From Thermoanaerobaculia bacterium (GTDB lineage: Bacteria; Acidobacteriota; Thermoanaerobaculia; UBA5066), in contig CAWFJJ010000005.1 of NCBI GenBank assembly GCA_963816185.1, forward strand, positions 224,001 through 288,000: a stretch of 64,000 nt of DNA, written 5' to 3'. A program made the position numbers and the translations under genes. Shown piece after piece: positions 15,642-29,442 of this stretch; within the stretch, counting starts at the first letter, position 1; each line of letters opens with the position of its first letter. Below the pieces are notes generated by a model, which saw only the letters and a program-made list of their open reading frames with translations, had not been told where the DNA came from and searched no databases.

Positions 15642-16569
15642 AACGACGTCCCTCGGCGTGAACGAACGCGCCCGCCACCTCGAAACACTCGCAGCCACGC
15701 CCGCCGCTCTCAGGGCCGCGCTCCGCGGCGTGCCTCGCAAGCTCCTCTTGTTCACGCCTGCGCCGGGCAAGTGGTCGATCCTCGAGATCCTGTGCCATCT
15801 GCGCGACATGGAGAGGGAGGGCTACCTCGAGAGGTACACGCGGATCCTCGCCGAAAACGAGCCGCGCCTTCCCGACCTGAACGGCGATGCGCTCGCGATC
15901 GAGCGCGATTACCGGGGGCAGAAAGCGGGGGACGTCCTGCGCGACTGGATGCGCCTGCGCCGCGAGAGCCTCCGGCTCCTCAAGAAGTCGAAGCCCGAGC
16001 AATGGCGCCGCGCGGGGTTCCACGAGACCGCGGGCCGGCTCACGATCGACGACCTCGTCGTGCGGCATGCGGTGGGCAACGACATCGCGCATCTCGCCCA
16101 GATCGATGCGATCAAGCGCCGGGCGGCCCTTCTCGAACGCCTCTCGGCCGCCCCCGCCGCGCTCACAGCCGCCCTGAAGGGCGTGCCCGACGACGTCCTG
16201 CGGCGCCGACCGCCGACCGGGAAGTGGTCGATGATCGAGAACGCCGCCCACGTGCGCGACATCGAGCGCATCTACCAGGAGCGCTTCTCGAAGGTGGCGT
16301 TCTCCGAAAGACCGGCGTTCTGGATGCTGGACAACGACCGGGCCGCAGCCCAATTGAAGTACGGGGAGTCCGATCCCGCAGCCGTCGCGAAGGAGTTCCG
16401 GCGGCTGAGGGAGGACACGCTGGTGCTTCTGCGCGCACTGCCCGACGCGGCCTGGCGGCGCATGGGCCTCCACCCGAAGCGCGGCGAGCTGACCCTCGAG
16501 CAGCTCGCCGCGGTCCTCGCGGGCCACGACGACAACCACATCGGAAAGATCCGGGAGCTGCGGGGATAA
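15634..16569 (+). CDS. Tandem DinB/YfiT-like protein (two domains)
   Basis: GKWSILEILCHLRD and GKWSMIENAAHVRD, ending NDIAH and HDDNH; ATG overlaps the upstream gene. Confidence 0.88.
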   Translation: MPETTSLGVNERARHLETLAATPAALRAALRGVPRKLLLFTPAPGKWSILEILCHLRDMEREGYLERYTRILAENEPRLPDLNGDALAIERDYRGQKAGDVLRDWMRLRRESLRLLKKSKPEQWRRAGFHETAGRLTIDDLVVRHAVGNDIAHLAQIDAIKRRAALLERLSAAPAALTAALKGVPDDVLRRRPPTGKWSMIENAAHVRDIERIYQERFSKVAFSERPAFWMLDNDRAAAQLKYGESDPAAVAKEFRRLREDTLVLLRALPDAAWRRMGLHPKRGELTLEQLAAVLAGHDDNHIGKIRELRG

Positions 16570-16586
16570 AGAACGCGTGGTCGTCT

Positions 16587-16675
16587 CGCGCGAGCGGTAT
16601 ACCCTCCTCCTTCGCGCGTGAACTCGCTTCGCTCAGACAGCACGCGCGTGCGTCGGAGGGCATACCGCCCCGCGC
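16587..16675. repeat. Long imperfect palindrome (REP/MITE-like or terminator)
   Basis: GCGGTATACCCTCC (16594-16607) pairs with GGAGGGCATACCGC (16655-16668); inner CGCGCGTG/CACGCGCG; loop contains CTCGCTTCGCTC. Confidence 0.7.
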
Positions 16676-16682
16676 TCGACTC

Positions 16683-16710
16683 TTGACAAATCAATTTTCA
16701 TTGATATATT
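16683..16710 (+). promoter_or_regulatory. Sigma70 promoter of the ars operon with overlapping ArsR-type operator
   Basis: TTGACA (16683-16688), 16-nt spacer, TATATT (16705-16710); ATCAA-N6-TTGAT palindrome 16690-16705; ATG 6 nt after the -10. Confidence 0.85.
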
Positions 16711-16716
16711 GAAGGC

Positions 16717-17112
16717 ATGGCAGGACCGGCCATTCCAGCGAGGAAGACTCAATACCGCTTGGATGTTGCTCGACTCGCCCGCCTTTTCCATGCCCTGTCG
16801 GACGAGACGCGACTGAAGATCGTGGAACGGCTGCTTTTGGGTGAGCAGTGTGTCTGTAACCTCATGGAAATGCTAGCGTTAGGGCAATCGCATCTGTCGT
16901 TTCACATGAAGAGCCTGAAGGCTGCCGGGCTCGTGACCGACCGCCGCGACGGGCGCTGGATCCACTACTCCTTGAACCCCGAATCCCTCGGGGAGATCCA
17001 GGAATTCGTGGGAGCGGTCAACGAGAAGGCCACGCGGCTGGACGCCGCTCGCTGCTGCGAAGAGGAAAAGAAGACCTCGGTGGGACAACTCTACGGTTTC
17101 TCACTTTTCTAA
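16717..17112 (+). CDS. arsR: ArsR/SmtB-family As(III)-responsive repressor
   Basis: LFHALSDETRLKI, EQCVCNL, LSFHMKSLKAAGLV, C-terminal CC pair; first gene of the ars operon. Confidence 0.93.
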   Translation: MAGPAIPARKTQYRLDVARLARLFHALSDETRLKIVERLLLGEQCVCNLMEMLALGQSHLSFHMKSLKAAGLVTDRRDGRWIHYSLNPESLGEIQEFVGAVNEKATRLDAARCCEEEKKTSVGQLYGFSLF

Positions 17113-17114
17113 GA

Positions 17115-17130
17115 ATCAAGAATTCTTGAT
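17115..17130. promoter_or_regulatory. Second ArsR-type operator between arsR and arsM
   Basis: Perfect palindrome ATCAAGAATTCTTGAT with the same ATCAA-N6-TTGAT pattern as 16690-16705. Confidence 0.75.
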
Positions 17131-17145
17131 TAATTGGAGGACCCT

Positions 17146-17964
17146 GTGGCTGAAACGAGCATCAAGGACGTAGTCAAGGAGAAATACGGAGAAGCCGCCC
17201 GGCGGGCCGCGGCCGAAGGCGCGTCGTGCTGCGCCCCCGCGTGCTGCGGCGGGGAAAAAGACCCCATTACTTCGGATCTCTATTCTCTTTCGGAAACCGC
17301 AGGCCTCCCGACCGCGGCGGTGTCGGCCTCGCTCGGGTGCGGCAACCCGACGGCCCTCGCGAGTCTGAACGCGGGCGACACGGTCCTCGACCTCGGCTCG
17401 GGCGGCGGCATCGACGTTCTCCTTTCGGCTCGCCGTGTCGGCCCCACCGGGAAGGTCTACGGCCTCGACATGACGGACGACATGCTCGCCCTCGCCCGCG
17501 AGAACCAGCGGAAGGCGGGCGTGACAAACGTGGAGTTCCTCAAGGGCGAGCTCGAGAACATCCCGCTCCCCGACGGGAGTATCGACGTCATCATCTCGAA
17601 CTGCGTCGTGAACCTCTCGGCCGACAAGGACCGCGCGCTGACCGAGGCGTTCCGCGTCCTCAAGCCGGGCGGGCGGTTCGCGGTGTCGGACGTCGTCGTG
17701 AGAGGCGAAGTCCCGGCCGACGTCCGGAAGAACGTCGAGCTCTGGATCGGCTGCCTCGCGGGCGCTCTCGAGGAGAAGGATTTCGAGGCGAAGCTGAAGA
17801 AAGCGGGCTTCACGGACGTCGCGATCGTGCCGACGCGCGTCTACACGATCGCGGACGCGCAGGATTTCCTCTCGGCTGCGGGGATCGACGTGGACGCGAT
17901 TGGACCACTCGTCGATGGCAAGTTCATGAGCGCGTTCGTTCGAGCGACGAAGCCGGCGGTGTAG
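17146..17964 (+). CDS. arsM: Arsenite S-adenosylmethionine methyltransferase
   Basis: GGAGG RBS then GTG; [33 protein letters not shown]. Confidence 0.95.
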
Positions 17965-17974
17965 GGAAGAGCAT

Positions 17975-19072
17975 GTGAGCGAAGCGTCCGCGCCGAAGCG
18001 CCTGAACGTCTTCGAGCGCTACCTCACCCTCTGGGTCGCTCTCTGCATGGTCGCCGGAGTGACGATCGGAAAGCTCCTTCCGGGCCTGACCGGCGCGATC
18101 CGCGGGCTCGAGTTCGGCGAGGGGAGCCAGATCAACGTCGCGATCGCGGTCCTGATCTGGCTGATGGTCTACCCGATGATGCTCAAGATCGATTTCACGA
18201 GCATTCTCGGCGTGAGAAAGAAGCCGAAGGGTCTTCTCGTGACCCTCTTCGTGAACTGGCTCGTCAAGCCGTTCTCGATGGCCTTCCTGGCCTGGCTTTT
18301 CTTCAAGCATGTCTTCGCGGGCCTCATCGCGCCCGGTCTCGCCGACCAGTACATCGCGGGGGCCATCATCCTGGCCGCGGCCCCCTGCACGGCGATGGTT
18401 TTCGTCTGGTCGTACCTCACCGACGGCGACCCGGCCTACACGCTGGTCCAGGTCTCCGTGAACGACCTGATCATGCTCGTCCTGTTCGCGCCGATCGTCA
18501 CGCTCCTCGTAAGCGGTGCGAGCAACCTGACCGTGCCGGTGAAGGTCCTGATCACCAGCGTGATCTCGTTCATCGTCATCCCGCTGGTTCTCGGGAGCCT
18601 GAGCCGGACGATTCTCCTCCGCGCGAAGGGCGTCGAGTGGTTCGAGACCCGCTTCCTGGCCTTCTTCCACCCGGTCACGGTGATCGCGCTCCTCGCGACG
18701 CTCGTCCTCATCTTCGCGTTCCAGGCCGACAACCTCCTGACGCACTGGTTCCACGTCGTCCTCATCGCCATCCCGCTCCTGATCCAGGTCTACTTCAACT
18801 CCGGACTCACGTACGGCCTGATGAAGCTTCTGAGGGTTCCGCACAACGTGGCGGCTCCGGGCGCACTCATCGGCGCGAGCAACTTCTTCGAGCTGGCGGT
18901 CGCGACCGCGATCGCCCTTTACGGGCCGGGCTCCGGCGCGGCGCTCGCCACGGTGGTTGGTGTCCTCGTCGAAGTCCCCGTGATGCTCTCCGTCTGTGCC
19001 GCGTGCAACCGCACCCGAGCCTGGTTTCCGCCGCCCGCTCCGGCGGTGGCCCCGGCCGGAGGGATGCGGTGA
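17975..19072 (+). CDS. acr3: ACR3-family arsenite efflux transporter
   Basis: [54 protein letters not shown]. Confidence 0.96.
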
Positions 19073-19467
19073 AGACCGGCGGGCTCCTCTTCCTGTGTGT
19101 GGCGAATTCGGCCCGGAGCCAGATGGCAGAAGGGCTGGCGCGCGCGCGCTTCGGGGACGCCGTACGCGTGCAGAGTGCCGGCTCGGACGCCGCTGGCGTG
19201 AACCCGCTCGCGGTGAAGGCTCTCGCGGAGCTCGGGATCGACATCTCGCTCCAGACCTCCAAGACCGTCGACACGATCGATCCTTCGACTGTCGATACCG
19301 TCGTCACGCTCTGCGCCGAAGAGGTCTGCCCGGTCTATCTGTCGAAGGCGCAGCGCCTGCACTGGCCGCTTCCGGATCCGACGGCCGGAGGCGGTTCGGA
19401 GGAGGAGCAGCTCAACCGGTTCCGCCGAACGCGGGACGAGATCCGCGCGCGCCTCGAGACCTTGTAA
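19069..19467 (+). CDS. arsC: Arsenate reductase, LMW-PTP/thioredoxin type
   Basis: [31 protein letters not shown]; GTG overlaps the acr3 stop. Confidence 0.93.
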
Positions 19468-21282
19468 CTACGGGTTCTCGGACACGCAGACGCGGTCGCG
19501 CCCCTCCTGCTTGGCTCGATAGAGGGCGACGTCGGCGTTTTGCATGAGGACGTCGCGGCTCGAGCCGTTCTCCGGATAGGTCGCCACCCCCAGAGACAGG
19601 GTCACGGGATCCAGAACCCGCGTTCCGTGCTGCACGCGCAGCTGTCTCGCGGCCTCCCGGATCTCCTCGGCCCGCTGCACCGCGGTCTCTCGGGAGGCGT
19701 CCTGCAGAAGGATCGTGAACTCCTCCCCCCCGTAGCGGCAGGCGATGTCACCGGCTCGGATCCGCCGCTGCAGGAACGAGCCCAGATCCCGCAGAAGCGC
19801 ATCGCCGGCATCGTGACCGAAGGTATCGTTGAAGGTCTTGAAGTGGTCGATGTCCACCATGAGGATGCCGAGCACCTTGCCTTGGCGTTCGGCGCGGCGC
19901 AGCTCCCGCGTCAAGGACTCTTCCATGTAACGGCGGTTGAATAGGCCGGTGAGGGGATCCCGCACGGACAGGTGTTGAAGGGTCTCCTGCAGCTTCAGCT
20001 TGGCCAGAGCCAGACCCAGATGCTCTCCCACCCGGACTCCGAGGTGCTGACGGGCATCCCATCGCTCCGGGTCGGCGGACGCGAGCAGAAGGTGGAGCGT
20101 CCCGAGAGCCGCCCCATGGGCCATCATGGGCACGCACAGGTAGGCGGCGTGTCCGTCCGTCACGTGTCTGCATCGCAGGCCGGCCTCGATGTCCGACCGA
20201 CCGTGGATTCGTCCTCGCCGCAGGCTCCAGCAGTCGTCCGGGGAGAAGACGCTTTCGCCGACGGGCTTGTCTCCCCACGCGGCAACGGCCTCGACCGTCT
20301 GGCCTGACTCTCCGAAGACGAGCAGGGCTCCGGAATCCTCCGGAAACAGCTGCCTCGCGAAGACCTGAAACCCCGTGTGGGCCTCTGCGCTCGTGTTGCA
20401 GCTCTGCAGGAGATCGCCCATCTGACCGAGCAGGTTGATCTCGGCGTTGCGATGCTCGAGCTCCCGTCCCCAGAGCATCAGGCGATCGTTGGCGTGCTGG
20501 AGCTCCAGGGTCCGTTCCGCCACCGTAGCTTCCAGCTCCTTCCGCTCCGTGATGTCGAAGAAAAGCCCGCTGATGTACTCCACCCTGCCCGCTTCGTCGC
20601 AGACGATGTGGCTCCTCTCGTGGATCCAGACGGGTCTTCCATTCGCGGATCTCACGCGATACTCCCGAACGTAGGCCCGGCTGGTCCTCAGGGCCTGGAG
20701 AAAAGCTCCTCTCGCGGCTTCGCGGTCTTCCTCCCAGATCAGATCCGTCCACTTCATCCCGTGAGGACCGAATGACGTCTGGGCGTAGCCGATCAGCGCC
20801 TCCACCTTCCGGTCGAAGAGGTCGATCGTGCCGTCGACATACCCCTTGAACGTGACGGCCGGGATGTTGTCGACCACGATTCTGAAGTCCTGCTCGGCCT
20901 TGTGAAGACTCTGCTCGAGACTCTTCCGGTCCGTGACGTCGAAGAACAGGCCGGTGATGCATTCGATCCTGCCGCCGGGATCACAGACGATGTGACTCCG
21001 CTCGTGGACCCAGACGTGATTCCCGGACCTGGCGCTGATCCGGTACTCGCGGGTGTAGGCCTTTCCGGCCTTGAGCGCGGCGAGGAAAGCTTCCTTGGCG
21101 GCACCGCGATCCGAGTCGAGGATCAGATCCGTCCACTTCCGCTCCCGGGTCTCGAACTCTTCCTTGGTGTAGCCGGTCATGGCCTCCACCTTCCGGTCGA
21201 AGAGATCGATGGTCCCGTCGGCGTAACCTCGAAAGAGAACGGCCGGAATGTCGGCGAGAATCGCGTCAAAGTCCCAGCTCAT
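19468..21282 (-). CDS. Diguanylate cyclase, PAS-PAS-GAF-GGDEF
   Basis: Two similar PAS/PAC repeats (DLFDRKVEA...REYR...WxHERSHIVCD), DCWSLRRG GAF, DPLTGLFNRR, RAGD I-site, GGEEF. Confidence 0.93.
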   Translation of the reverse strand: MSWDFDAILADIPAVLFRGYADGTIDLFDRKVEAMTGYTKEEFETRERKWTDLILDSDRGAAKEAFLAALKAGKAYTREYRISARSGNHVWVHERSHIVCDPGGRIECITGLFFDVTDRKSLEQSLHKAEQDFRIVVDNIPAVTFKGYVDGTIDLFDRKVEALIGYAQTSFGPHGMKWTDLIWEEDREAARGAFLQALRTSRAYVREYRVRSANGRPVWIHERSHIVCDEAGRVEYISGLFFDITERKELEATVAERTLELQHANDRLMLWGRELEHRNAEINLLGQMGDLLQSCNTSAEAHTGFQVFARQLFPEDSGALLVFGESGQTVEAVAAWGDKPVGESVFSPDDCWSLRRGRIHGRSDIEAGLRCRHVTDGHAAYLCVPMMAHGAALGTLHLLLASADPERWDARQHLGVRVGEHLGLALAKLKLQETLQHLSVRDPLTGLFNRRYMEESLTRELRRAERQGKVLGILMVDIDHFKTFNDTFGHDAGDALLRDLGSFLQRRIRAGDIACRYGGEEFTILLQDASRETAVQRAEEIREAARQLRVQHGTRVLDPVTLSLGVATYPENGSSRDVLMQNADVALYRAKQEGRDRVCVSENP

Positions 21283-21457
21283 TCCCGCCAGAATAGGAAG
21301 ATCGATCCGGACCCGCAAGCGAGCAGGGCCGAGGACATCTCAAGTGCCGAGTCTTTCTTGGCCAGCCATGAGCCCGGACCTTTCCGTTTGTCGCATGTCT
21401 CAAGGAAAGCGGAGCGCTGCAGACAGCGAGGACAGCCCCCGCCGAGGAGAGAACGCC

Positions 21458-24211
21458 ATGAAGAGACTCGCCGTCGTTCTCGCCCTGCTCCTCCCGGCGG
21501 CCGGTCTGGCTCAGCTCCCGCCGGTCATCAAGTACACCATCCCAGGCGTCGTGAATGCTGGCGGCCTGAACAACACCCGATTCGTGTCCGATCTCGCACT
21601 CACGAACCCGGGCTCGTCTTCGGCAAACCTGCTCCTTTCGTTCGTGCCGGAAGAAGACCTCGACGATCTCGAGGTCAGCCTGTCCGGGGGGAAGACGATC
21701 GTGTGGCGAAACGTCCTCCAGCAGCTCTGGGGCGGTGCCGAGACCGCCGGCGCGGTCGTCGTCAGGTCCGACCAGCCGCTCCTCGTCCGGGCGCGGACCT
21801 ACAACACGGCCGCGGGCGGCACCTACGGCGTCGCGCTGCCCGTCTACGATTCGGACCGCTTCATCTCGCCGGGAGCGGGCGCGCACAGCCTCTGGGTGAG
21901 CCAGAGCGCCGACTCGAAGGCCGGCTACCGGACGAACATCGCCGTTCTCTTCCCCGACGCCGACGGTGGCGCAGCGACCGTGATCGTGTTCGACGCCGAC
22001 GGCAGGTCCCTGGGCCAGCAGGACTATTCGCTGTCTTCGGCCGGATTCCAGCAGTTCGGCGTCGGGAGCTTCGCGGGCGCCGCGCCGGTCGCGCGGGCCG
22101 AGATCCAGGTGGGCCGCGGGCACGCCGCCGGCTACTCCGTCGTCGTGGACAACGTCACGGGCGACAGCTCGCTCTTCACGTTCGAGCCGCTCCCGGCCGG
22201 GGCACAGGACGTCCTCGTCAACGGTGTGGCGCGTGCGAACGGACGCAACAGCACGTTCTTTCGGACAGACGGGCGCTTCTTCAACCCGGGCGAGACCGAC
22301 GCGACGGTGACGGTCACGTTTCACGCGAACCAGACCAGCAACCCCTCGCCGGTCACGCGCGACTTCGTCATTCCCGCAGGGAAGATCCGGGACATCGTCG
22401 ACGTCCTCGACTCCCTGCTGGGCCTGCCGGTGGGCTCGGCCGGGGCCTTGCGGTTCACGTCCGACTCCGCGGTCGCGATCCTCTGCCGGACGAGCAATGT
22501 CGATCCGGCGGGCGTCAAGCCGGGCACCTTCGGCGCGCAGCAGAAGCCCACGCCGGTTCTCTCGTTCCTGATGTCGGCCGACACGGGGGCGGTCGTCACG
22601 GGCATTCGTCAGAACGCGACGTTCCGGACGAACATCGGCTTTGCCGCGGGCGCGGACGGTGCCATGTACTCCCTGACACTCAAGCATCCGTCTGGTGCGA
22701 CGGTCGCCACCGCGTCCGGCTCTCTCGGAGCCTTCGGCTGGATGCAGCCGAACGTCGCGGACCTCTTCCCGGGGACGACGATTCCCGAGGACGCGACGCT
22801 TCTCGTACGGGTCACCTCCGGAAGCGTCGACGTGTTCGATTCCTCGATCGACAACGCCTCCGGAGACCCGGTCGTCACTCCGATCGTGCCTCTGCCCGCG
22901 GACATCCCTTCCGCAGCGACGATAGGGCCTGAAGGGGGGAGCGTGAGATCCGACGATGGCCGGCTGACCGTCAAGGTCCCCGCCGGGGCGCTCTCCTCGT
23001 CGGCGAGCGTCGGTCTCCAGACCGCTCCGAACACCGCGCCCAATGGTGTCGGGTCCGGGTACTCGCTTACCGTCGGCGGCGCGTCCTTCGCGAAGGCACC
23101 GCTCGCGTCCCTCCGCTACAGCGCCAGAGACCTCGTCGGCAGCGGCCCGGAACACCTCATGCTGGCCTATCAGTCGGCAGGCACGCTCTACGCTCTAAGA
23201 GGCTCGACCCGCGACACGTCGACGCGGACGCTCTGGACTCCTCTGCTCGGTGCTCCCTTCGGAGCGAAATCGACGCTCTCGAAAGGATCGAGGGAGACCC
23301 TGACGAAGGACTCGGGAGCGGCTATCGCCCCGATCCTGGACTTCACGATCACTCCGGGGAAGGCCGGAGTGCTCAGCGGGAGGTCCGTCCAATTCAAGTT
23401 GACGGGGACCCATGTTCTCAGCGATGGGACGCTCGCACCCGTGGACTTGACGACCGGCACCACGTGGGAGCTTCAACCTTCGGGAGCGCCGGGGAATCTT
23501 CTCGCCCTTGGTGATACTGCAACGTACGTGGCACCTCAGGCGGTGAGCTGTGTGCAGCCCCTCAAGGTGGTCTTCCACCGCAACATCGATGGGATGAACT
23601 ACGTCGGCTGGGCCGAGATCACCCTCCTTCCGCGCGTGTGGGAGCTTCTCGCGAGCGCGGTGGTGAGGGCCGACCATTGCAAGGTCGCGGGTAATTCCCC
23701 GAGCTTCACATTGATGACGGACCTGATGAGAATGGAGATGACTCTGATCGAGACGGCTGATGGTTTCCAGTTCACGGAGGGAATACAGGCATCGATCGTC
23801 AGCAAAGGATCGTATGCATCGGATTTCCTCTGTCCGTCGAAAGGCTGCGCAAATTTCTGGAAGGCTGAACCGAAGACCGACTTGAATTTCTATGGCGGAG
23901 TCCTGGCCGACGGCGGGTGGGACAACACCGCCGGCACCTTCCTTATGCGGAATTTTGGTCTGGTCCTCGGCGGCGGGATACAGTATGAATGGGGTTATTG
24001 TCAGGGGGGCTTTGGGAGGGGAATGCTGCCGGGGATGGGCGGCCTGGAAAATTTGGGAGTCAGCTTCTCTCCTCCCGACCCGAATGGCGACTGCAAGACG
24101 GAAATGAAGCTTACGTGGCAGGACTATCGGGATTTGCTAGGTGTGCCCGTCACGAAGAAGGACGTGTACTACGGGACCGAATACCTCCTAGTTCTGGAAC
24201 CGAGCGATTGA
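21458..24211 (+). CDS. Large secreted/surface protein with two repeated beta-rich modules, a ZU5-like domain and a divergent C-terminus
   Basis: AGGAG RBS, signal MKRLAVVLALLL; repeats GLNNTRFVSD..NPG and GRNSTFFRTD..NPG, YRTNI/FRTNI; TIGPEGGSVRSDDGRLTVKVPAGAL. Confidence 0.75.
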   Translation: MKRLAVVLALLLPAAGLAQLPPVIKYTIPGVVNAGGLNNTRFVSDLALTNPGSSSANLLLSFVPEEDLDDLEVSLSGGKTIVWRNVLQQLWGGAETAGAVVVRSDQPLLVRARTYNTAAGGTYGVALPVYDSDRFISPGAGAHSLWVSQSADSKAGYRTNIAVLFPDADGGAATVIVFDADGRSLGQQDYSLSSAGFQQFGVGSFAGAAPVARAEIQVGRGHAAGYSVVVDNVTGDSSLFTFEPLPAGAQDVLVNGVARANGRNSTFFRTDGRFFNPGETDATVTVTFHANQTSNPSPVTRDFVIPAGKIRDIVDVLDSLLGLPVGSAGALRFTSDSAVAILCRTSNVDPAGVKPGTFGAQQKPTPVLSFLMSADTGAVVTGIRQNATFRTNIGFAAGADGAMYSLTLKHPSGATVATASGSLGAFGWMQPNVADLFPGTTIPEDATLLVRVTSGSVDVFDSSIDNASGDPVVTPIVPLPADIPSAATIGPEGGSVRSDDGRLTVKVPAGALSSSASVGLQTAPNTAPNGVGSGYSLTVGGASFAKAPLASLRYSARDLVGSGPEHLMLAYQSAGTLYALRGSTRDTSTRTLWTPLLGAPFGAKSTLSKGSRETLTKDSGAAIAPILDFTITPGKAGVLSGRSVQFKLTGTHVLSDGTLAPVDLTTGTTWELQPSGAPGNLLALGDTATYVAPQAVSCVQPLKVVFHRNIDGMNYVGWAEITLLPRVWELLASAVVRADHCKVAGNSPSFTLMTDLMRMEMTLIETADGFQFTEGIQASIVSKGSYASDFLCPSKGCANFWKAEPKTDLNFYGGVLADGGWDNTAGTFLMRNFGLVLGGGIQYEWGYCQGGFGRGMLPGMGGLENLGVSFSPPDPNGDCKTEMKLTWQDYRDLLGVPVTKKDVYYGTEYLLVLEPSD

Positions 24212-24238
24212 CTTCGGCCTGGCGAGGGATCCCGCCCC

Positions 24239-25323
24239 TCACGCCAGCAGCCGAAAGGCGAGCGCGGCCACGAGGCCGGCCACCGGCAGCGTGACGACCC
24301 ACGCGAGAAGCATCTCCCGCACGGTTCGCCAATGGACCTTGCTTTCTCTCGACTCGGCGCCGATCCCGATGATCGCGCCCGAAGACACGTGGGTCGTCGA
24401 GACGGGGACGGCCCAGAGCGAGGCGGCGCTCACGAGCGCCGAGGTCGTGAGGTTCGCGAGCAGCCCGTCGTCGTGCGAGATCCGTGTCACTTTCCTCGCG
24501 AGCGTCTCCGTGACGCGGAAGCCGCCGAGGACGCTGCCGAGACTCATCGCCACGGCGACGAGCGCGTAGAAACCGAAGGAGGAGATGCCGAGTCCCGCCG
24601 TCGCCGGCGATGCCGAGAGCGAGGATCTTCGGCGTGTCGTTGAGGCCGCGGAAGAAGCATGTCGCGCCCGCAGAGGTCCAGTGCAGGGAGTCGAGGAGCC
24701 CTACGCGGACGAGCGTCTCGGGCGGGCAGTCGGAAGCCGCTACCAGGTCCAGGGCGGGCAAGGGAGACGACGAGCGCGGCGCCGACCGAGGCCGGAAGCG
24801 GCTCGCGCCGCTCGACGCAGACGCAGAATGGGTGCGCGCGGCGAAAGACCGGCAGGGCGACGGGCGCGAGAAGGAGCACGAGCGCCAGGGAGATCACGGG
24901 CGAGAGCGCGAGCGGGAGCACGACCTTTCTCGCGACGGCTGCCCACGCGACGCCCGAAGCGCCCACGACGGCGAGGCCCGCGCCGCAAAGGGCGCCGGTC
25001 AGCGCGTGCGTCGTCGAGACGGGAAGCCCCGTGCGGTTCGCGATCAGAAGCCACGCGATCGCGCCGCACGCGACCGAGAGGAGGAACGCGTTTCCCTCGA
25101 ACGGCTTCACGAGGAAGCCCTTGCCGCTGAACGTCGCGACGAGCCCCTGGGAAAGGAACGCGGCCGCGAGGCCTCCCGCGAAGGTCCACGCGGTGCCCCA
25201 AATCACCGCGGCTTGGTACCGCGTCGTGCCCGAGCCGACGAGCGTGGCGATACCCTTCGACACGTCGTTCGCGCCGTTCGCGAACGCGAGACCGAGCGTC
25301 AGGAGCACGAGGACGAGGCCCAT
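24239..25323 (-). CDS. PiT/PHO4-family inorganic phosphate (anion) transporter, frameshifts at about 24760 and 24600
   Basis: GANDVSKGIATLVGSG, PVSTTHA, RGLNDTPK, second PVSTTHV; ATG overlaps the upstream TGA. Confidence 0.88.
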
Positions 25324-27821
25324 CAGCAACAGCCCGTCCCGTCGGTGCCCGGTGCGCAGCACGCATAGCCGGCGCGCTCCTCGCCCGGCTCGAGGATCGC
25401 GAAGAATCCTTTGTACGGGGGATGCGAGAGCTTCGCGACGGTGTCGGTGCACACTTCGTAGGCCTCGTTGCGGGGGAACTGGTGGCCCTCCTCGTCGACG
25501 AACGCCTTGCCCGGCCCGAGGTAAACGGCCCGGTGGCCCTTGAAGACGCAGCCCGAGGTCTTCTCGAACTTGAACCCGCGCACCGTGACTGAAAAGAACG
25601 GATAACCCTCGACGTCCTTCCAGTAGCTCTTCTTCAGGATCTCGAGGCCGTAGAAGCCGGCTCGTTCGAGGCCCGCGAGGAAGCCCTCCTGCGTGAGCGC
25701 GCCGACGAGGCACTCTCCCCAGAGCCGCGGGTTCGTCTTGAGGTGCGGAGGCACGTCCGTCTCCGAGACGATGTCCGAGATCACGATGCGACCGTGATCC
25801 TTCAGGACGCGCCAGATCTCTTCGAACACGCGCGGCTTGTCGGGCGAAAGGTTCACGACGCAGTTCGAGGTGACGAGGTCGACCGTCTTCGATTCCACCG
25901 GAATCTCCTCGAGGAATCCTTCGCGGAACTCGACGACGTCGTACCCGAGCGCCGCGGCAACCTTCGGCTTGTTCTCGTGCGCGACCGACAACATCCGATC
26001 CGTCATGTCGACGCCGATCGCCTTGCCAGTCTTGCCGACGAGTTTCGCCGCGATGAAGACGTCGATGCCGGCCCCGGAGCCGAGGTCGACGACGGTCTCG
26101 CCTTCCCTGATGAGAGCCGTCGTCATGGGCGAGCCGCAGCCGTAGAAGCGGTCGAGGACGTCCTTCGGGATGTGGGAGACGGCGGAGTCGTCGTACTTCG
26201 TCGGGCAGCACAGCTCGGGCTGCGGCGTCTCGGCGGCGGCGCCGTAGAACTCGCGCATCTTCGCGCGCGGCTTGTCGACGTCGAACGAGAGGACGCAGTT
26301 GGAGTGGAGCGTGAGGACGGGTTCCTCGGCGAGCGCCCCGTCGGCGGTTCCGCAGGCGATGGCGCCTTCCCCCATCGCGTGGAGGACGAGCGGCGCGTCG
26401 TACCCGGAGCGCGCGTTCTTTCGCGCGCGCTTCTCGCGGCCGAGCGCCGTCATGACTCTCTTCGTGAGCGCGACGGAAATCGGGTAGTACGGATCGGCAC
26501 CGAGGAAGTCGCCGCCGGAGAAACACCAGGCGTGCTCGAGGTCCCCGCCCCCCGTGAAGAAGCGGAAGGGGTCGGCACTCGCCGCGGGCTTTCGCGCGAG
26601 CGTCGCGCCACGGAGCGTCCGGATGACCGGCGACGTCTCGAGGATTTCCGCGAGGTCCTGCCGCGTCGCGTCGCCGCAGACGAGCGCGGGCTCGTTTGCG
26701 AGAGCCGCCGTCGGGTAGACCACACCGTCCGCGTAGACGCAGATCGAGTCCCAGCCCGCGTTCCCGAGGTCGTACTTGACGCCCGGGACGCCGTTCACAC
26801 GCCGCTTGATCGCCTCGAGGTTGTCGAGCGTCGTTCCCTCGCGTCCCGCGGCGTCCGCGACGGCGAGGACGGCCTTGAGAAGCACGAGGTTCTCGGGGAA
26901 GAAGCCGTTCGCGCTCTCGGCCGCGCGGCCTCGTCTGTGACTCCACATGAGATGCTGGCTCTTCGCACCGACTCGCTTGACGAGAGCCGGGATCTCGGCG
27001 AGCTCGGAAAGGTTCGCTTCGGTCGGGACCGTCGTCAGCGAGACGTCGAAACCCAGATCCGCGAGAAGCTTCGCGCCGTCGAGCGCCTTCACGAAGGTGC
27101 CCGCCCCGCGGACCTCGTCGTTCGTCTCGGGGCTGGCCCCGTCGATCGAAACCTGAAACTTCACGCGGGAGCGGTCGAGGGATTCGAGGCCTTTCTTCGC
27201 GGCGCCCGAAAAGACGGTCGCGTTCGTGAGGATGATCATCTCGGCGCCGTGCGTTCGGGTCGCGCGGTTCGCGAGGTCGAAAAGGTCCCTTCTCAGGAAC
27301 GGCTCGCCGCCCGTGACGTAGAGGCGCTCCATTCCGAGCTGCACCGCGCGGTCGACGAGCCGCACGAGGGCCTCGGGGTCGCTGCCCCGCGAGCCGTCCG
27401 GGCCCGACGAGACGAGGCAGTGCGTGCACGTGAGGTTGCACGCGTTGTTGATGTGCAGCCACAGCTCGCGGAGCCCGGCCGGCTCGATGAGAGCGGCGCG
27501 GCCGGGGTAGGGCTCGCGGACGAACGGGGCGTCCGACAGCAGACCGGCGCGATCGAGGGCGCGGAGGAAGTCGTGCACCTGGAGCCACGCCTTTCCCGCT
27601 TCGAGCTGACGGTCGAAGGCCCATCGTGCGACACAGGTTCCGAATGCGAGAGGTGCGCCGGTCTCCTCGGCCGCGCGGATCGCACGAAGCAGCTCTCCGC
27701 CGCGGGCGTCGACGGCAATCCAGTTGGGCGCCTCGTGGTCGACGGCGTAGAGGATGTCGTCTTCCGTGAACGTGTAGAGCGCGGGGACGTGGAGCGGAGT
27801 CCGCTCCTGAAGAACGGTCAT
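25323..27821 (-). CDS. Radical SAM - As(III) methyltransferase (ArsM/AS3MT-like) fusion protein
   Basis: CNLTCTHC (27417-27440), TGGEPF, TNAT, VSIDG; C-terminal half has LCCP, FYGCGSP, DLGSGAGID, SNCV, WGECL and ends in CC; GGAGG RBS. Confidence 0.88.
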   Translation of the reverse strand: MTVLQERTPLHVPALYTFTEDDILYAVDHEAPNWIAVDARGGELLRAIRAAEETGAPLAFGTCVARWAFDRQLEAGKAWLQVHDFLRALDRAGLLSDAPFVREPYPGRAALIEPAGLRELWLHINNACNLTCTHCLVSSGPDGSRGSDPEALVRLVDRAVQLGMERLYVTGGEPFLRRDLFDLANRATRTHGAEMIILTNATVFSGAAKKGLESLDRSRVKFQVSIDGASPETNDEVRGAGTFVKALDGAKLLADLGFDVSLTTVPTEANLSELAEIPALVKRVGAKSQHLMWSHRRGRAAESANGFFPENLVLLKAVLAVADAAGREGTTLDNLEAIKRRVNGVPGVKYDLGNAGWDSICVYADGVVYPTAALANEPALVCGDATRQDLAEILETSPVIRTLRGATLARKPAASADPFRFFTGGGDLEHAWCFSGGDFLGADPYYPISVALTKRVMTALGREKRARKNARSGYDAPLVLHAMGEGAIACGTADGALAEEPVLTLHSNCVLSFDVDKPRAKMREFYGAAAETPQPELCCPTKYDDSAVSHIPKDVLDRFYGCGSPMTTALIREGETVVDLGSGAGIDVFIAAKLVGKTGKAIGVDMTDRMLSVAHENKPKVAAALGYDVVEFREGFLEEIPVESKTVDLVTSNCVVNLSPDKPRVFEEIWRVLKDHGRIVISDIVSETDVPPHLKTNPRLWGECLVGALTQEGFLAGLERAGFYGLEILKKSYWKDVEGYPFFSVTVRGFKFEKTSGCVFKGHRAVYLGPGKAFVDEEGHQFPRNEAYEVCTDTVAKLSHPPYKGFFAILEPGEERAGYACCAPGTDGTGCC

Positions 27822-27866
27822 CGCCAACCTCCTGGAATTTCGGGTCCCGGGCCGCGGGGAAAGGCG

Positions 27867-28559
27867 TCAGACGGCGGTCGCGGCGGGAGGCGCGCGAGCT
27901 GGCGAGACCGGGCGGGGCGCGTGCGTTCGCGCCAGGCGAACGCGCGCAGGAGCTTCCGGGACCGGGCGCAGCGAGTCGAGAAGCGCTGCGAGCTCTGGGT
28001 CGAGGCTCGGCTCCGACGCGAGGAAGGCGAGGTCGGACGGGCTGTCGACGTCTGCAAGCACGTCCAGAAGAGCCGCGTCGGGAGCGTTACGAACGAGAGC
28101 CGAAAAAACGTCCGCCGTTCGCCACGTCACCTTGTCGAACAGCTCCGAGAGGTTCGTCCCCACCCGAGACCCGATCAGCCAGACGCCGCCGTCCGGCGAC
28201 GGGCCGAGAACGACGTCCCGCGTCTCGAGAGCGTGGAAAGCGGCGGAGAGCTGCGTCCCGGAGAGGCCGGGCACGTCTCCGGGGACGGCGACGATCTCGG
28301 CGTAGCCCGCGGCACGCGCGTCCTCGAACGCGTTCCTCAGTCGCTCGCCGAATCCAAGGCCGCGCTGCGGCAGAATCCGCGCCGCTTCCGGCGCCGAGGC
28401 GGCGCTCGCGCAAATCAGGTCGACGCCGAGAGCTCGTGCCGCTGCGGCCACGCGCTGGATCGAGAACGCGAACAGCAGGCCGCCCCCCGGCATGCTCTTC
28501 ACGGCCCCCTCCTGGAGAGGTGATCTCGAGAACAGCAGGATGCAGCGGGACCCTCTCAC
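27867..28559 (-). CDS. DUF2064 / TIGR04282-like (CofC-related GT-A fold) transferase with C-terminal RAPP tail
   Basis: PQRGLGFGERL, VPGDVP, VVLGPSPDGGVWLIG, LADVD; tail ...PARAPPAATAV*. Confidence 0.82.
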   Translation of the reverse strand: MRGSRCILLFSRSPLQEGAVKSMPGGGLLFAFSIQRVAAAARALGVDLICASAASAPEAARILPQRGLGFGERLRNAFEDARAAGYAEIVAVPGDVPGLSGTQLSAAFHALETRDVVLGPSPDGGVWLIGSRVGTNLSELFDKVTWRTADVFSALVRNAPDAALLDVLADVDSPSDLAFLASEPSLDPELAALLDSLRPVPEAPARVRLARTHAPRPVSPARAPPAATAV

Positions 28560-28634
28560 GTGCCTGACTTCTGAATGCTAATACGGCCCGCCGACATTCC
28601 CCGGATCCGCTTCCGGAGAACGTTTTGTGGATTC

Positions 28635-28660
28635 TGAAACCTTTTCGGGCTGTTTGCGTC
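28635..28660 (+). promoter_or_regulatory. Candidate ECF-sigma promoter
   Basis: TGAAAC-16 nt-CGTC, upstream of the ORF at 28713. Confidence 0.5.
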
Positions 28661-28712
28661 TTCTTACTTGAAGCGTGGCCCCCGGGGGCGGAAAAAGGTG
28701 AACGAGGGGATC

Positions 28713-28979
28713 ATGGAATCGGCCGTAGAACTTCACGAGGCGAGAGTCCTGAGGGCAGGAATCGAAATGCGAGAGGCGGAATTGGCTTCCCTTCGCGGCG
28801 ATGCTCCCTCGGCCGACGGCGCGCGGCGCGCCGAAGAGGTCACGAGAGAGATCGAGCGCCTCAAGGACGACTATCGCCGGGTCCTTGCGCGCCAGGCCGA
28901 CGAGGACTATTGCCGCCGCCGCACGGAATGGCGCGCCCAGCAGGGCGGCCGCGGCCGGCGCACCAGCGCCTGCGCCTGA
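28713..28979 (+). CDS. Small coiled-coil hypothetical protein
   Basis: GAGGGG RBS, 88 codons, charged helical pattern, upstream promoter motif. Confidence 0.55.
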   Translation: MESAVELHEARVLRAGIEMREAELASLRGDAPSADGARRAEEVTREIERLKDDYRRVLARQADEDYCRRRTEWRAQQGGRGRRTSACA

Positions 28980-28983
28980 CGCG

Positions 28984-29442
28984 CTACTTCCTCGAGATGT
29001 CGAAGCTGATCTTGATCGTCCTTGCGACCTTGTAGTCGTTCGTGACCATCTTCACGAACATCATGTTCGTGTCGTCGAGCTTGCCCTTGTCGAGCGTGGC
29101 CGTGCGGTCGTTCTCCCCGAAGGGCTTGCCGTCCCTGCCACCGGGAATGGTGACGACGTACTTGCACTTGTAATCCTTGTCACGGTCCCGGTTCGAGTAG
29201 TGAAACTCCACCACCATCGTGTGCGTGTCTTTCAGGTCCTTCTCGGCCTTGTGGAAGTCGTCCGAGTCCGGCCAGTGCCGGATGCGGAAGGAATCGATCG
29301 TGACGTCGCCGACCTTGATTCCGACCTTGATGTCCTTGTCGCCCGTGAAGGGATAGCTGCGCTCGAATTTTCCCGTCTGGGCGTAACCCGGCGAGGGCAG
29401 TAGGAGCGCTGCGGCGAGAGCGGCGAGGCCGAACCGGTTCAT
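28984..29442 (-). CDS. Secreted hypothetical protein
   Basis: GGAGG RBS, signal peptide MNRFGLAALAAALLL, host-like codon usage. Confidence 0.75.
   Translation of the reverse strand: MNRFGLAALAAALLLPSPGYAQTGKFERSYPFTGDKDIKVGIKVGDVTIDSFRIRHWPDSDDFHKAEKDLKDTHTMVVEFHYSNRDRDKDYKCKYVVTIPGGRDGKPFGENDRTATLDKGKLDDTNMMFVKMVTNDYKVARTIKISFDISRK

Follow-up and report, generated by a model that had tools for sequence, protein, structure and literature searches.

A three-gene module around a radical SAM–ArsM fusion

We analysed a 64,000-nucleotide window of a Thermoanaerobaculia bacterium genome (GCA_963816185.1, contig CAWFJJ010000005.1, positions 224,001–288,000 of the forward strand, numbered here from 1), in which a minus-strand module encodes a DUF2064 protein, a protein that joins a radical S-adenosylmethionine (SAM) domain to an ArsM-type As(III) methyltransferase, and a PiT-family permease (Table 1). 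Radical SAM–ArsM fusions of this design are widespread yet unstudied, and probably make carbon–arsenic compounds. The window lies on contig C5 of a 5.09-Mb genome (30 contigs, 94.9% complete) and has a G+C content of 65–70%.

The original prediction, made from the letters of the DNA, had placed three co-directional genes here, with the start of the PiT gene overlapping the stop of the fusion, and both statements were correct. The open frame of the fusion spans 25323–27827, with an ATG at 27821 and a TGA stop at 25323–25325; transcription would run DUF2064, fusion, PiT, with 45 nucleotides (nt) between the first two genes. The PiT ATG (25323–25321) shares a single base with the fusion stop (TGATG), an arrangement of translational coupling. 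A scan of 23900–29100 gave no promoter-like site, and a terminator scan of the same segment gave one terminator-like site, on the wrong strand, which is fewer than shuffled sequences gave.

Table 1 Features of the window and the ArsS cluster of the same genome. aa, amino acids; AF2, AlphaFold2; RRE, recognition element of ribosomally synthesized and post-translationally modified peptides (RiPPs).
Feature	Position	Strand	Notes
DUF2064 gene	27867..28559	-	First gene of module, 230 aa
Radical SAM–ArsM fusion gene	25323..27821	-	832 aa plus stop; no internal stops
PqqD/RRE-like N-terminal domain, aa 13–95	27537..27785	-	AF2 topology, CteB alignment
Radical SAM core, aa 116–345	26787..27476	-	Pfam PF04055; C128-x3-C132-x2-C135, GGEP at aa 171–174
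SPASM-like domain, aa 346–470	26412..26786	-	CteB/anSME fold match; auxiliary-cluster cysteines lost
ArsM-type As(III) SAM methyltransferase, aa 521–832	25326..26261	-	Third domain and tail ACCAPGTDGTGCC included
PiT-family (PHO4) permease gene	24239..25323	-	Pfam PHO4, two pieces
987-aa protein gene	21248..24211	+	Between GGDEF gene and module
GGDEF gene	19468..21318	-	Between ars operon and module
arsR-arsM-acr3 operon	16717..19072	+	NCBIfam; context, variable neighbour outside module
arsR	16717..17112	+	NCBIfam
Ordinary stand-alone arsM	17134..17964	+	NF008823 359 bits against cut-off 263; 7.4 kb from module
acr3	17975..19072	+	NCBIfam
Canonical ArsS cluster	C30:14515-21021 (L058:2515-9021)		Own genome; TauE-like exporter, rhodanese, VTT/DedA, then core genes

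Architecture and conservation of the fusion protein

Judged by sequence, fold and comparison with its homologues, the fusion is genuine and conserved, joining a complete ArsM to a radical SAM domain that is equipped for catalysis. We aligned two sets of fusion sequences, one of 12 (44–72% identity) and one of 30 (36–82% identity). In both, the radical SAM cysteines C128/C132/C135 and the GGEP motif, the cysteines C538/C539, C562, C654 and C704 of the ArsM half, and C822 and C832 in the tail are invariant or nearly so. The fused architecture and the CxxxCxxC, CCP, YGCG, SNCV and GEC motifs that had been read from the sequence were borne out, their residues being invariant in the 12-sequence alignment. 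A terminal CC had been named as well; the protein does end in a conserved CC...CC tail, ACCxPxxGCC, within which the invariance applies to C822 and C832. Because CxxxCxxC and GGEP are invariant in 30 sequences down to 36% identity, we do not regard the radical SAM domain as vestigial.

The radical SAM half belongs to the lineage of peptide maturases. Pfam Radical_SAM (PF04055) matches residues 126–278 (E 1e-21), and an AlphaFold2 model of residues 1–520 has a mean predicted local distance difference test score (pLDDT) of 89.8 and a predicted template-modelling score (pTM) of 0.90. In this model, the N-terminal domain has the beta3-alpha3 order of an RRE (strands 15–20, 23–28 and 33–37, then helices 39–53, 60–71 and 75–91), and its W34 is invariant in the 12-sequence alignment; Pfam PqqD gave no match to the fusion at E 0.01. 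In structural comparison the model is closest to the sactipeptide synthase CteB (5wgg_A; Z 30.9, root-mean-square deviation 4.5 over 413 residues): residues 13–464 of the model lie on chain residues 2–450, an alignment that takes in RRE, radical SAM core and SPASM region. Next come TigE, SkfB, anSME, ChlB and SuiB. The top NCBIfam models for the N-terminal half are Rv1681-type, StsB (116 bits), MftC and AhbD-type radical SAM proteins. By comparison, the ArsS model TIGR04167 reaches 62.5 bits (cut-off 300), over model positions 5–150 of 303 only, which together with the CteB match upholds the proposal that this part is SPASM-type rather than ArsS-type.

The SPASM-like domain has lost most of its cluster ligands. 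SPASM (PF13186) scores 17.4 bits, under its cut-off of 21.5; the CxxCx5C...C motif is missing, and C361 and C382 alone are retained. The CxxCx5C and DPYC cysteines of distant relatives correspond to A414, D417, T423 and Y446 in the window protein. We compared 103 family members, chosen from 113 loci by their radical SAM and ArsM motifs, which are therefore fixed by construction in this set: the auxiliary cysteines are absent in 88, including the window protein, and kept in 13–15. In the tree, 13 rows of Cys-poor forms group into one clade and 11 rows of Cys-rich forms into another, and both clades are starred. With the SPASM cysteines lost in the clade of the window, two auxiliary [4Fe-4S] clusters are predicted not to be bound.

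The ArsM half matches Pfam Methyltransf_31 at residues 574–712 (E 3.3e-30), and its SAM-binding motif VVDLGSGAGID is nearly invariant in the 12- and 30-sequence alignments. Searches of the Protein Data Bank returned 5evj (E 4e-40) and 4fr0 (E 7e-39). C562, C654 and C704 align to C72, C174 and C224 of CmArsM (4fr0), and C539 of the C538/C539 pair aligns to the N-terminal cysteine of CrArsM (5evj); for CmArsM we take the numbering of these cysteines to be C44, C72, C174 and C224, with positions counted in the alignment. The 4fr0 alignment extends to chain residue 339, across the third ArsM domain. The general ArsM model NF008823 gives 234.2 bits, under its cut-off of 263, with residues 539–735 on model positions 42–233 of 272. 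For the C-terminal part, the arsinothricin-type ArsM model NF040538 gives 204 bits against 152 for the arsenosugar-type model NF038099, both scores lying far under their cut-offs (500 and 400, respectively).

Distribution of the fusion

A database search with the fusion returned more than 1700 significant matches, the best 120 of which are 740–839 aa long, at least 72% identical and carry generic labels at most. Among 401 Acidobacteriota genomes, 12 encode the full-length fusion; it was not found in three other genomes of the same genus as the window genome. In the tree, the window protein groups with good support in a clade made up of four Thermoanaerobaculia and five Gemmatimonadota sequences. 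The Gemmatimonadota fusions (L061–L069), 67–75% identical to the window protein, are monophyletic inside a Thermoanaerobaculia clade (support 98/96 and 100/99), a nesting that suggests transfer of the gene between these phyla, in either direction. At two loci (L062:7473-10421 and L081:9974-12506) the fusion is split into two open reading frames (ORFs), which may reflect a stop, a frameshift or an assembly error. A literature search, with subscription journals and supplements mostly outside its coverage, found no paper describing a radical SAM–ArsM fusion.

Transporters and transferases recur beside the fusion

To survey gene neighbourhoods, we used a genome-derived set of 35 loci, from which L075 and L079 had been dropped as duplicates of L043 and L044; excluding L089 and L133, which are ArsS-type, left 33 SPASM-type fusion loci. 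Counts over these 33 are lower bounds, several contigs being short. A PiT gene neighbours the fusion at 11 of them, a TIGR04282-like gene at 8 (plus L035, at 49 bits in a hidden Markov model (HMM) search), DUF547 and a MerA-like flavoprotein (NF004991, 700 bits) at 8 each, a TIGR04283-like gene at 7 and a VTT/DedA protein at 5. ACR3 and ArsR each have one occurrence in 33, the window itself. Matches to TIGR04282 and TIGR04283 above the cut-offs adjoin the fusion at loci of four phyla, namely Acidobacteriota (L041, L078), Planctomycetota (L074), Nitrospirota (L082) and Proteobacteria; TIGR04283 was not found beside the fusion of the window.

A second set comprised 80 metagenomic loci of close relatives (57–92% identity). 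Where at least 1.3 kb followed the complete end of the fusion (54 loci), PiT lay within 6 kb downstream at 33 (within 700 nt at 32), PstS plus PstC at 3, and neither at 18. Where at least 900 nt preceded it (56 loci), a DUF2064/TIGR04282-like gene lay within 3 kb upstream at 21. None of the 80 had ACR3, ArsS (above 150 bits) or a separate ArsM, and one had an ArsR-like match.

The module had been described as standing beside an ars operon. The operon is indeed near, but the GGDEF gene and the 987-aa gene intervene, and the linkage is not conserved. We rejected it as a feature of the system, given the absence of ACR3 from the 80 loci and the sister contigs that lack the operon. A separate, ordinary arsM is present about 7 kb away, as had been noted (Table 1); its use as an argument against plain detoxification we judged weak. 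The 987-aa protein encoded between operon and module has no family match in Pfam or NCBIfam.

The closest species-level genome, L035 (72% identity), bears on the role of the transporter. There the order is DUF2064-fusion-PstS-PstC-PstA-PstB, with genes abutting or overlapping (L035:4651-11261); PstC scores 245 bits, above its cut-off, and PstS, PstA and PstB fall below theirs. A divergent PstSCAB-like ABC importer occupies the PiT position, immediately after the fusion, in four related operons (L035, L146, L148 and L149). The presence of a binding-protein-dependent importer in this position argues for uptake of a phosphate-like oxyanion, so that of the two roles first offered for PiT, import of arsenate or export of the product, the former is favoured and the latter is not.

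The DUF2064 protein of the window is probably a divergent TIGR04282-like protein of nucleotidyl- or glycosyl-transferase fold. DUF2064 (PF09837) gives it 79.1 bits against a cut-off of 25.8, and TIGR04282 gives 91.4 bits against 134, with residues 57–177 on model positions 67–189. Sister contigs keep the gene at 76% aa identity. The claim of a TIGR04282-type transferase thus holds for relatives, whose fusions adjoin bona fide copies, and in the window meets a copy below threshold.

Some neighbourhoods hold other genes. A VTT/DedA gene lies immediately upstream of the fusion in three Gemmatimonadota loci (L064, L065 and L069). Three loci of Vicinamibacterales type (L040, L041 and L043) encode, with the fusion, an HMPTM-like zinc-ribbon radical SAM protein (681–714 aa), MoaA, an AlkB-type 2-oxoglutarate-Fe(II) oxygenase and a DAO-family flavoprotein, an accessory set that differs from that of the window. 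In a genome of the same class (G373), a gene for a CobW/HypB/UreG-family GTPase overlaps the 3' end of the fusion (L044:10388-11536).

The PiT gene is interrupted in the window

The PiT gene is present and coupled to the fusion, as had been read, but it is not one open frame. A tblastn search with intact relatives spread its homology over three reading frames, with two +1 shifts, near 24768 and 24606; the Pfam PHO4 pieces (1–138 and 253–350 of 350) accordingly lie in different frames. Omitting both extra bases gives a single PiT frame of 364 aa that has no stops and is 60% identical, over 363 aa, to the PiT that follows a fusion of Gemmatimonadales. Its best NCBIfam matches are to PitA and, weakly, to the sulfate permease CysP.

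We lean towards genuine decay of PiT in this sub-lineage. The rpoB and rpoC genes are uninterrupted frames of 1452 and 1412 aa, which argues that the assembly is not generally ridden with insertions and deletions, and the nearest relatives have lost PiT in whole or in part. In L141 (91.6% nucleotide identity) an internal deletion of 671 nt leaves a PiT remnant; PiT is missing from L142–L145 and L169. In L143, L145 and L169 (85% nucleotide identity) the fusion runs directly into the GGDEF gene, and the 987-aa gene and the entire arsR-arsM-acr3 operon are lacking too. Compared with L143, L145, L169 and L141, the segments of 16565–25300 that vary by insertion or deletion are therefore the ars operon, the 987-aa gene and PiT. 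An assembly error is the alternative, and contigs of near-identical strains that lack the extra base at each site weigh on its side. These came from Logan contigs of related soil runs rather than from reads of the source sample: one contig of run X1 lacks a base at 24768 (2 mismatches in 222 bases) and one contig of run X3 lacks a base at 24606.

The fusion coexists with ArsS

The genome also carries a canonical ArsS cluster, on contig C30, with ArsS at 421 bits, TIGR04282 at 193, TIGR04283 at 197 and the peroxidase-like TIGR04169 at 171. This second TIGR04282 copy is the canonical one. No ArsM adjoins the C30 cluster; with the fusion as query, the only ArsM-type genes in the genome were the two in the window and a weak match on C18 (E 2e-5). 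Elsewhere in the genome, at C14:2309-4629 and C24:178604-180854, a 422-aa radical SAM frame adjoins a TIGR04283-like glycosyltransferase; the two loci share search statistics and may be a duplicated segment or a double assembly.

Across the 401 Acidobacteriota genomes, ArsS occurs in 77 (G049, flagged as unpublished, included) and TIGR04282 in 151 (G049, G152 and G024, likewise flagged, included). TIGR04282 accompanies ArsS in 70 of 77 genomes and the fusion in 9 of 12, and is found in 74 of the 315 with neither; a Fisher value for this co-occurrence is overstated, since kin genomes are not independent. Fusion and ArsS occur together in the window genome, G348 and G258. In G367 (one contig, 96% complete) the fusion adjoins TIGR04283, and no ArsS was found. 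We considered that the fusion replaces ArsS and rejected this for the window genome, given its C30 cluster; the phylum sample lends it no support.

The ArsS-type loci set aside above show how ArsS itself can be joined to ArsM. L133, from a Proteobacteria metagenome-assembled genome (MAG), encodes a true ArsS–ArsM fusion of 679 aa (L133:221-2260; ArsS 403 bits at residues 32–329), flanked by DUF547, a TIGR04283-containing protein and TIGR04282. L089, from a Panacagrimonas MAG, has ArsM first and then an ArsS frame that overlaps it (L089:1408-3575). The accessory genes shared by the two systems, and the ArsS–ArsM fusion, support the idea that the SPASM-type fusion works like ArsS plus ArsM and shares its helpers; they do not support replacement of ArsS.

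A proposed route to organoarsenicals

We propose, with a probability of about 55%, that the fusion is a bifunctional organoarsenical synthase analogous to ArsM plus ArsS, with a radical SAM module drawn from the RRE–radical SAM–SPASM lineage. Arsenate would be taken up by the coupled phosphate-type importer (PiT, or the Pst-like ABC system in relatives) and then reduced. As(III) would be bound on C562/C654/C704, with C538/C539, and methylated with SAM by the ArsM half. The C-terminal CC...CC tail may hold the trivalent methylarsenical and offer it to the radical SAM site, similar to the C-terminal RCCLKC motif of ArsL, of which three cysteines bind As(III) according to a 2026 review (PMC13598754). 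The carbon radical that then adds to arsenic would derive from SAM and most likely be 5'-deoxyadenosyl, as in ArsS, and the As-centred radical would give its electron back to the [4Fe-4S] cluster. In the same review (PMC13598754), ArsS is described as adenosylating dimethylarsenite (DMAs(III)) to 5'-deoxy-5'-dimethylarsinoyl-adenosine (DDMAA); the reaction is redox-neutral, the cluster being reduced again by the As-centred radical. An addition of this redox-neutral kind could do without an auxiliary cluster, in keeping with the loss of SPASM cysteines in the clade. Where present, DUF2064/TIGR04282- and TIGR04283-type transferases, DUF547, the MerA-like reductase and DedA/VTT may process or handle the product. 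The physiological sense would be that arsenate entering with phosphate is turned into a tolerated organoarsenical. More speculatively, the RRE may dock the protein's own tail.

Several observations weigh against this proposal. The RRE, which normally binds a peptide, has none explained for the fusion. A complete ArsS cluster coexists with the fusion in the same genome, and ArsS turns up in 3 of 12 genomes that have the fusion and in 74 of 389 that do not, so there is no mutual exclusion. Without exclusion, an isofunctional replacement is not indicated, and the product of the fusion may differ from that of ArsS. On the transferase side, the DUF2064 protein adjoining the fusion scores under the TIGR04282 cut-off, the 'arsenosugar' name of TIGR04282 rests on association, and its presence in 74 genomes with neither enzyme means that it is not arsenic-specific evidence. 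On the transport side, PiT is broken or lost here and in the nearest relatives, so the importer is dispensable for the role of the enzyme, and its substrate specificity is not readable from sequence. The samples add to this, the 80 metagenomic loci being related and so not independent, and the 401-genome tallies including unpublished genomes.

An organoarsenical synthase with a radical step and product other than those of ArsS, such as 3-amino-3-carboxypropyl (ACP) transfer as in ArsL or another radical acting on trivalent monomethylarsenic (MAs(III)) or As(III), is unlikely but deserves serious consideration; its product would coexist with arsenosugar-type products in the same cell. Such a step would suit the presence of both ArsS and the fusion in three genomes (the window genome, G348 and G258), the unrelatedness of the radical SAM lineage to the ArsS subfamily, and the standing of the window DUF2064 (91 bits) as a divergent paralogue of the ArsS-adjacent copy (193 bits). 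The cysteine tail also recalls the As(III)-binding motif of ArsL, and the end of the ArsM half prefers NF040538 to NF038099 (204 and 152 bits). However, these two scores are both far under the cut-offs, and in other phyla the accessory genes of the fusion are those of ArsS clusters. A bolder version, in which the whole module is a purpose-built arsenic-assimilation unit and not a side effect of detoxification, with a dedicated arsenate importer (PiT or Pst-like), hand-over within one polypeptide on a C-terminal vicinal-Cys arm from the ArsM site to a radical SAM site free of auxiliary clusters, an RRE docking that arm in cis and a non-ArsS product, we regard as distinctly doubtful; a product differing from that of ArsS would explain why both enzymes coexist in one genome.

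Other readings remove the radical chemistry or the arsenic. Were the radical SAM half idle, regulatory or structural, the protein would be a detoxifying ArsM co-expressed with a phosphate transporter, as the lost SPASM cysteines, the linkage to phosphate-type importers (which admit arsenate) and the nearby ars operon of the window might suggest. We consider this improbable, because the cluster cysteines, GGEP and many other core residues are invariant in 30 sequences down to 36% identity, length is kept at 740–839 aa in the best 120 matches, and the genome already has an ordinary arsM. It is harder still to credit that the same architecture serves another soft metalloid or thiol-bound substrate (Sb, Se or Te), with uptake of an oxyanion by a PiT/CysP-like permease. 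ArsM enzymes do methylate Sb(III), the PiT pieces match best in NCBIfam, though weakly, the sulfate permease CysP, the ArsS cluster of the genome has rhodanese and TauE, and MerA-like reductase and DedA are recurrent neighbours, but both the cysteine set and the fold match As(III) methyltransferases for which As-bound structures have been solved, and the replacement for PiT is Pst-like, of phosphate/arsenate rather than sulfate type (PstC 245 bits, above cut-off). Least probable of all is a RiPP-like peptide maturase, in which the RRE would dock a precursor, the radical SAM domain cross-link it and the methyltransferase methylate it, arsenic being no substrate. The N-terminal half does share the architecture of CteB and TigE, RRE included, and StsB, a sactipeptide maturase, is among its best NCBIfam radical SAM matches (116 bits). 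Yet sactionine-type chemistry needs auxiliary clusters that this clade cannot bind, all As(III)-binding cysteines of ArsM are kept, and the neighbours are transporters and transferases rather than the proteases or exporters of RiPP clusters. Nor is there a small ORF common to any two fusion loci: in the L035–L083 set without L089 and L133, no ORF of 18–90 aa within 3 kb of the fusion was shared at E 1e-3, a comparison of low sensitivity for short, fast-evolving peptides.

Significance and comparison with known systems

To our knowledge, only two enzymatic routes to complex C–As bonds have been characterised, those of ArsS and ArsL. If the synthase reading is true, the family would add a third radical SAM route to C–As bonds, recruited independently and fused to its methyltransferase partner. 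The fusion is frequent among uncultured Acidobacteriota, Gemmatimonadota, Nitrospirota and Planctomycetota of soils and sediments, and would give a single-gene, directly testable entry into the organoarsenical biosynthesis of these environments. Its coupling to a phosphate-type importer would tie arsenic biotransformation to phosphate acquisition, and its stripped SPASM domain and orphan RRE would show the repurposing of peptide-maturase scaffolds for small-molecule chemistry.

The nearest functional parallel is ArsS plus ArsM, the arsenosugar pathway of Synechocystis type. It too pairs a radical SAM enzyme with ArsM, has TIGR04282, TIGR04283 and DUF547 as accessory genes in several phyla, and includes a case of ArsS fused N-terminally to ArsM (L133). 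The fusion differs in having no match to the C-terminal half of ArsS, in possessing an RRE with a SPASM-like domain, and in its usual coupling to PiT. The arsQML cluster of arsinothricin synthesis has another kind of permease. In the arsinothricin pathway of Burkholderia gladioli GSRB05, ArsL likewise combines radical SAM formation of a C–As bond with ArsM (PMC13598754, 10.1101/2024.02.01.577332). The likeness of its C-terminal RCCLKC motif to ACCxPxxGCC is that of a Cys-rich tail, and for part of the ArsM half the arsinothricin-type ArsM model gives the highest score once the generic model is set aside. In contrast to the fusion, ArsL and ArsM are separate proteins, and ArsL cleaves SAM non-canonically to give an ACP radical.

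In fold, residues 13–464 resemble the peptide-modifying enzymes CteB, SuiB, TigE and anSME (5wgg, 5v1t, 8vpo and 4k36; Z 30.9 and 25.4), from which the fusion differs in lacking the CxxCx5CxxxC motif, in having no precursor peptide found and in being fused to ArsM. With CmArsM, CrArsM and AS3MT (4fr0, 5evj) it shares the three ArsM domains, the SAM motif and the equivalents of C44, C72, C174 and C224, whereas in the fusion 520 residues of radical SAM module come before the ArsM.

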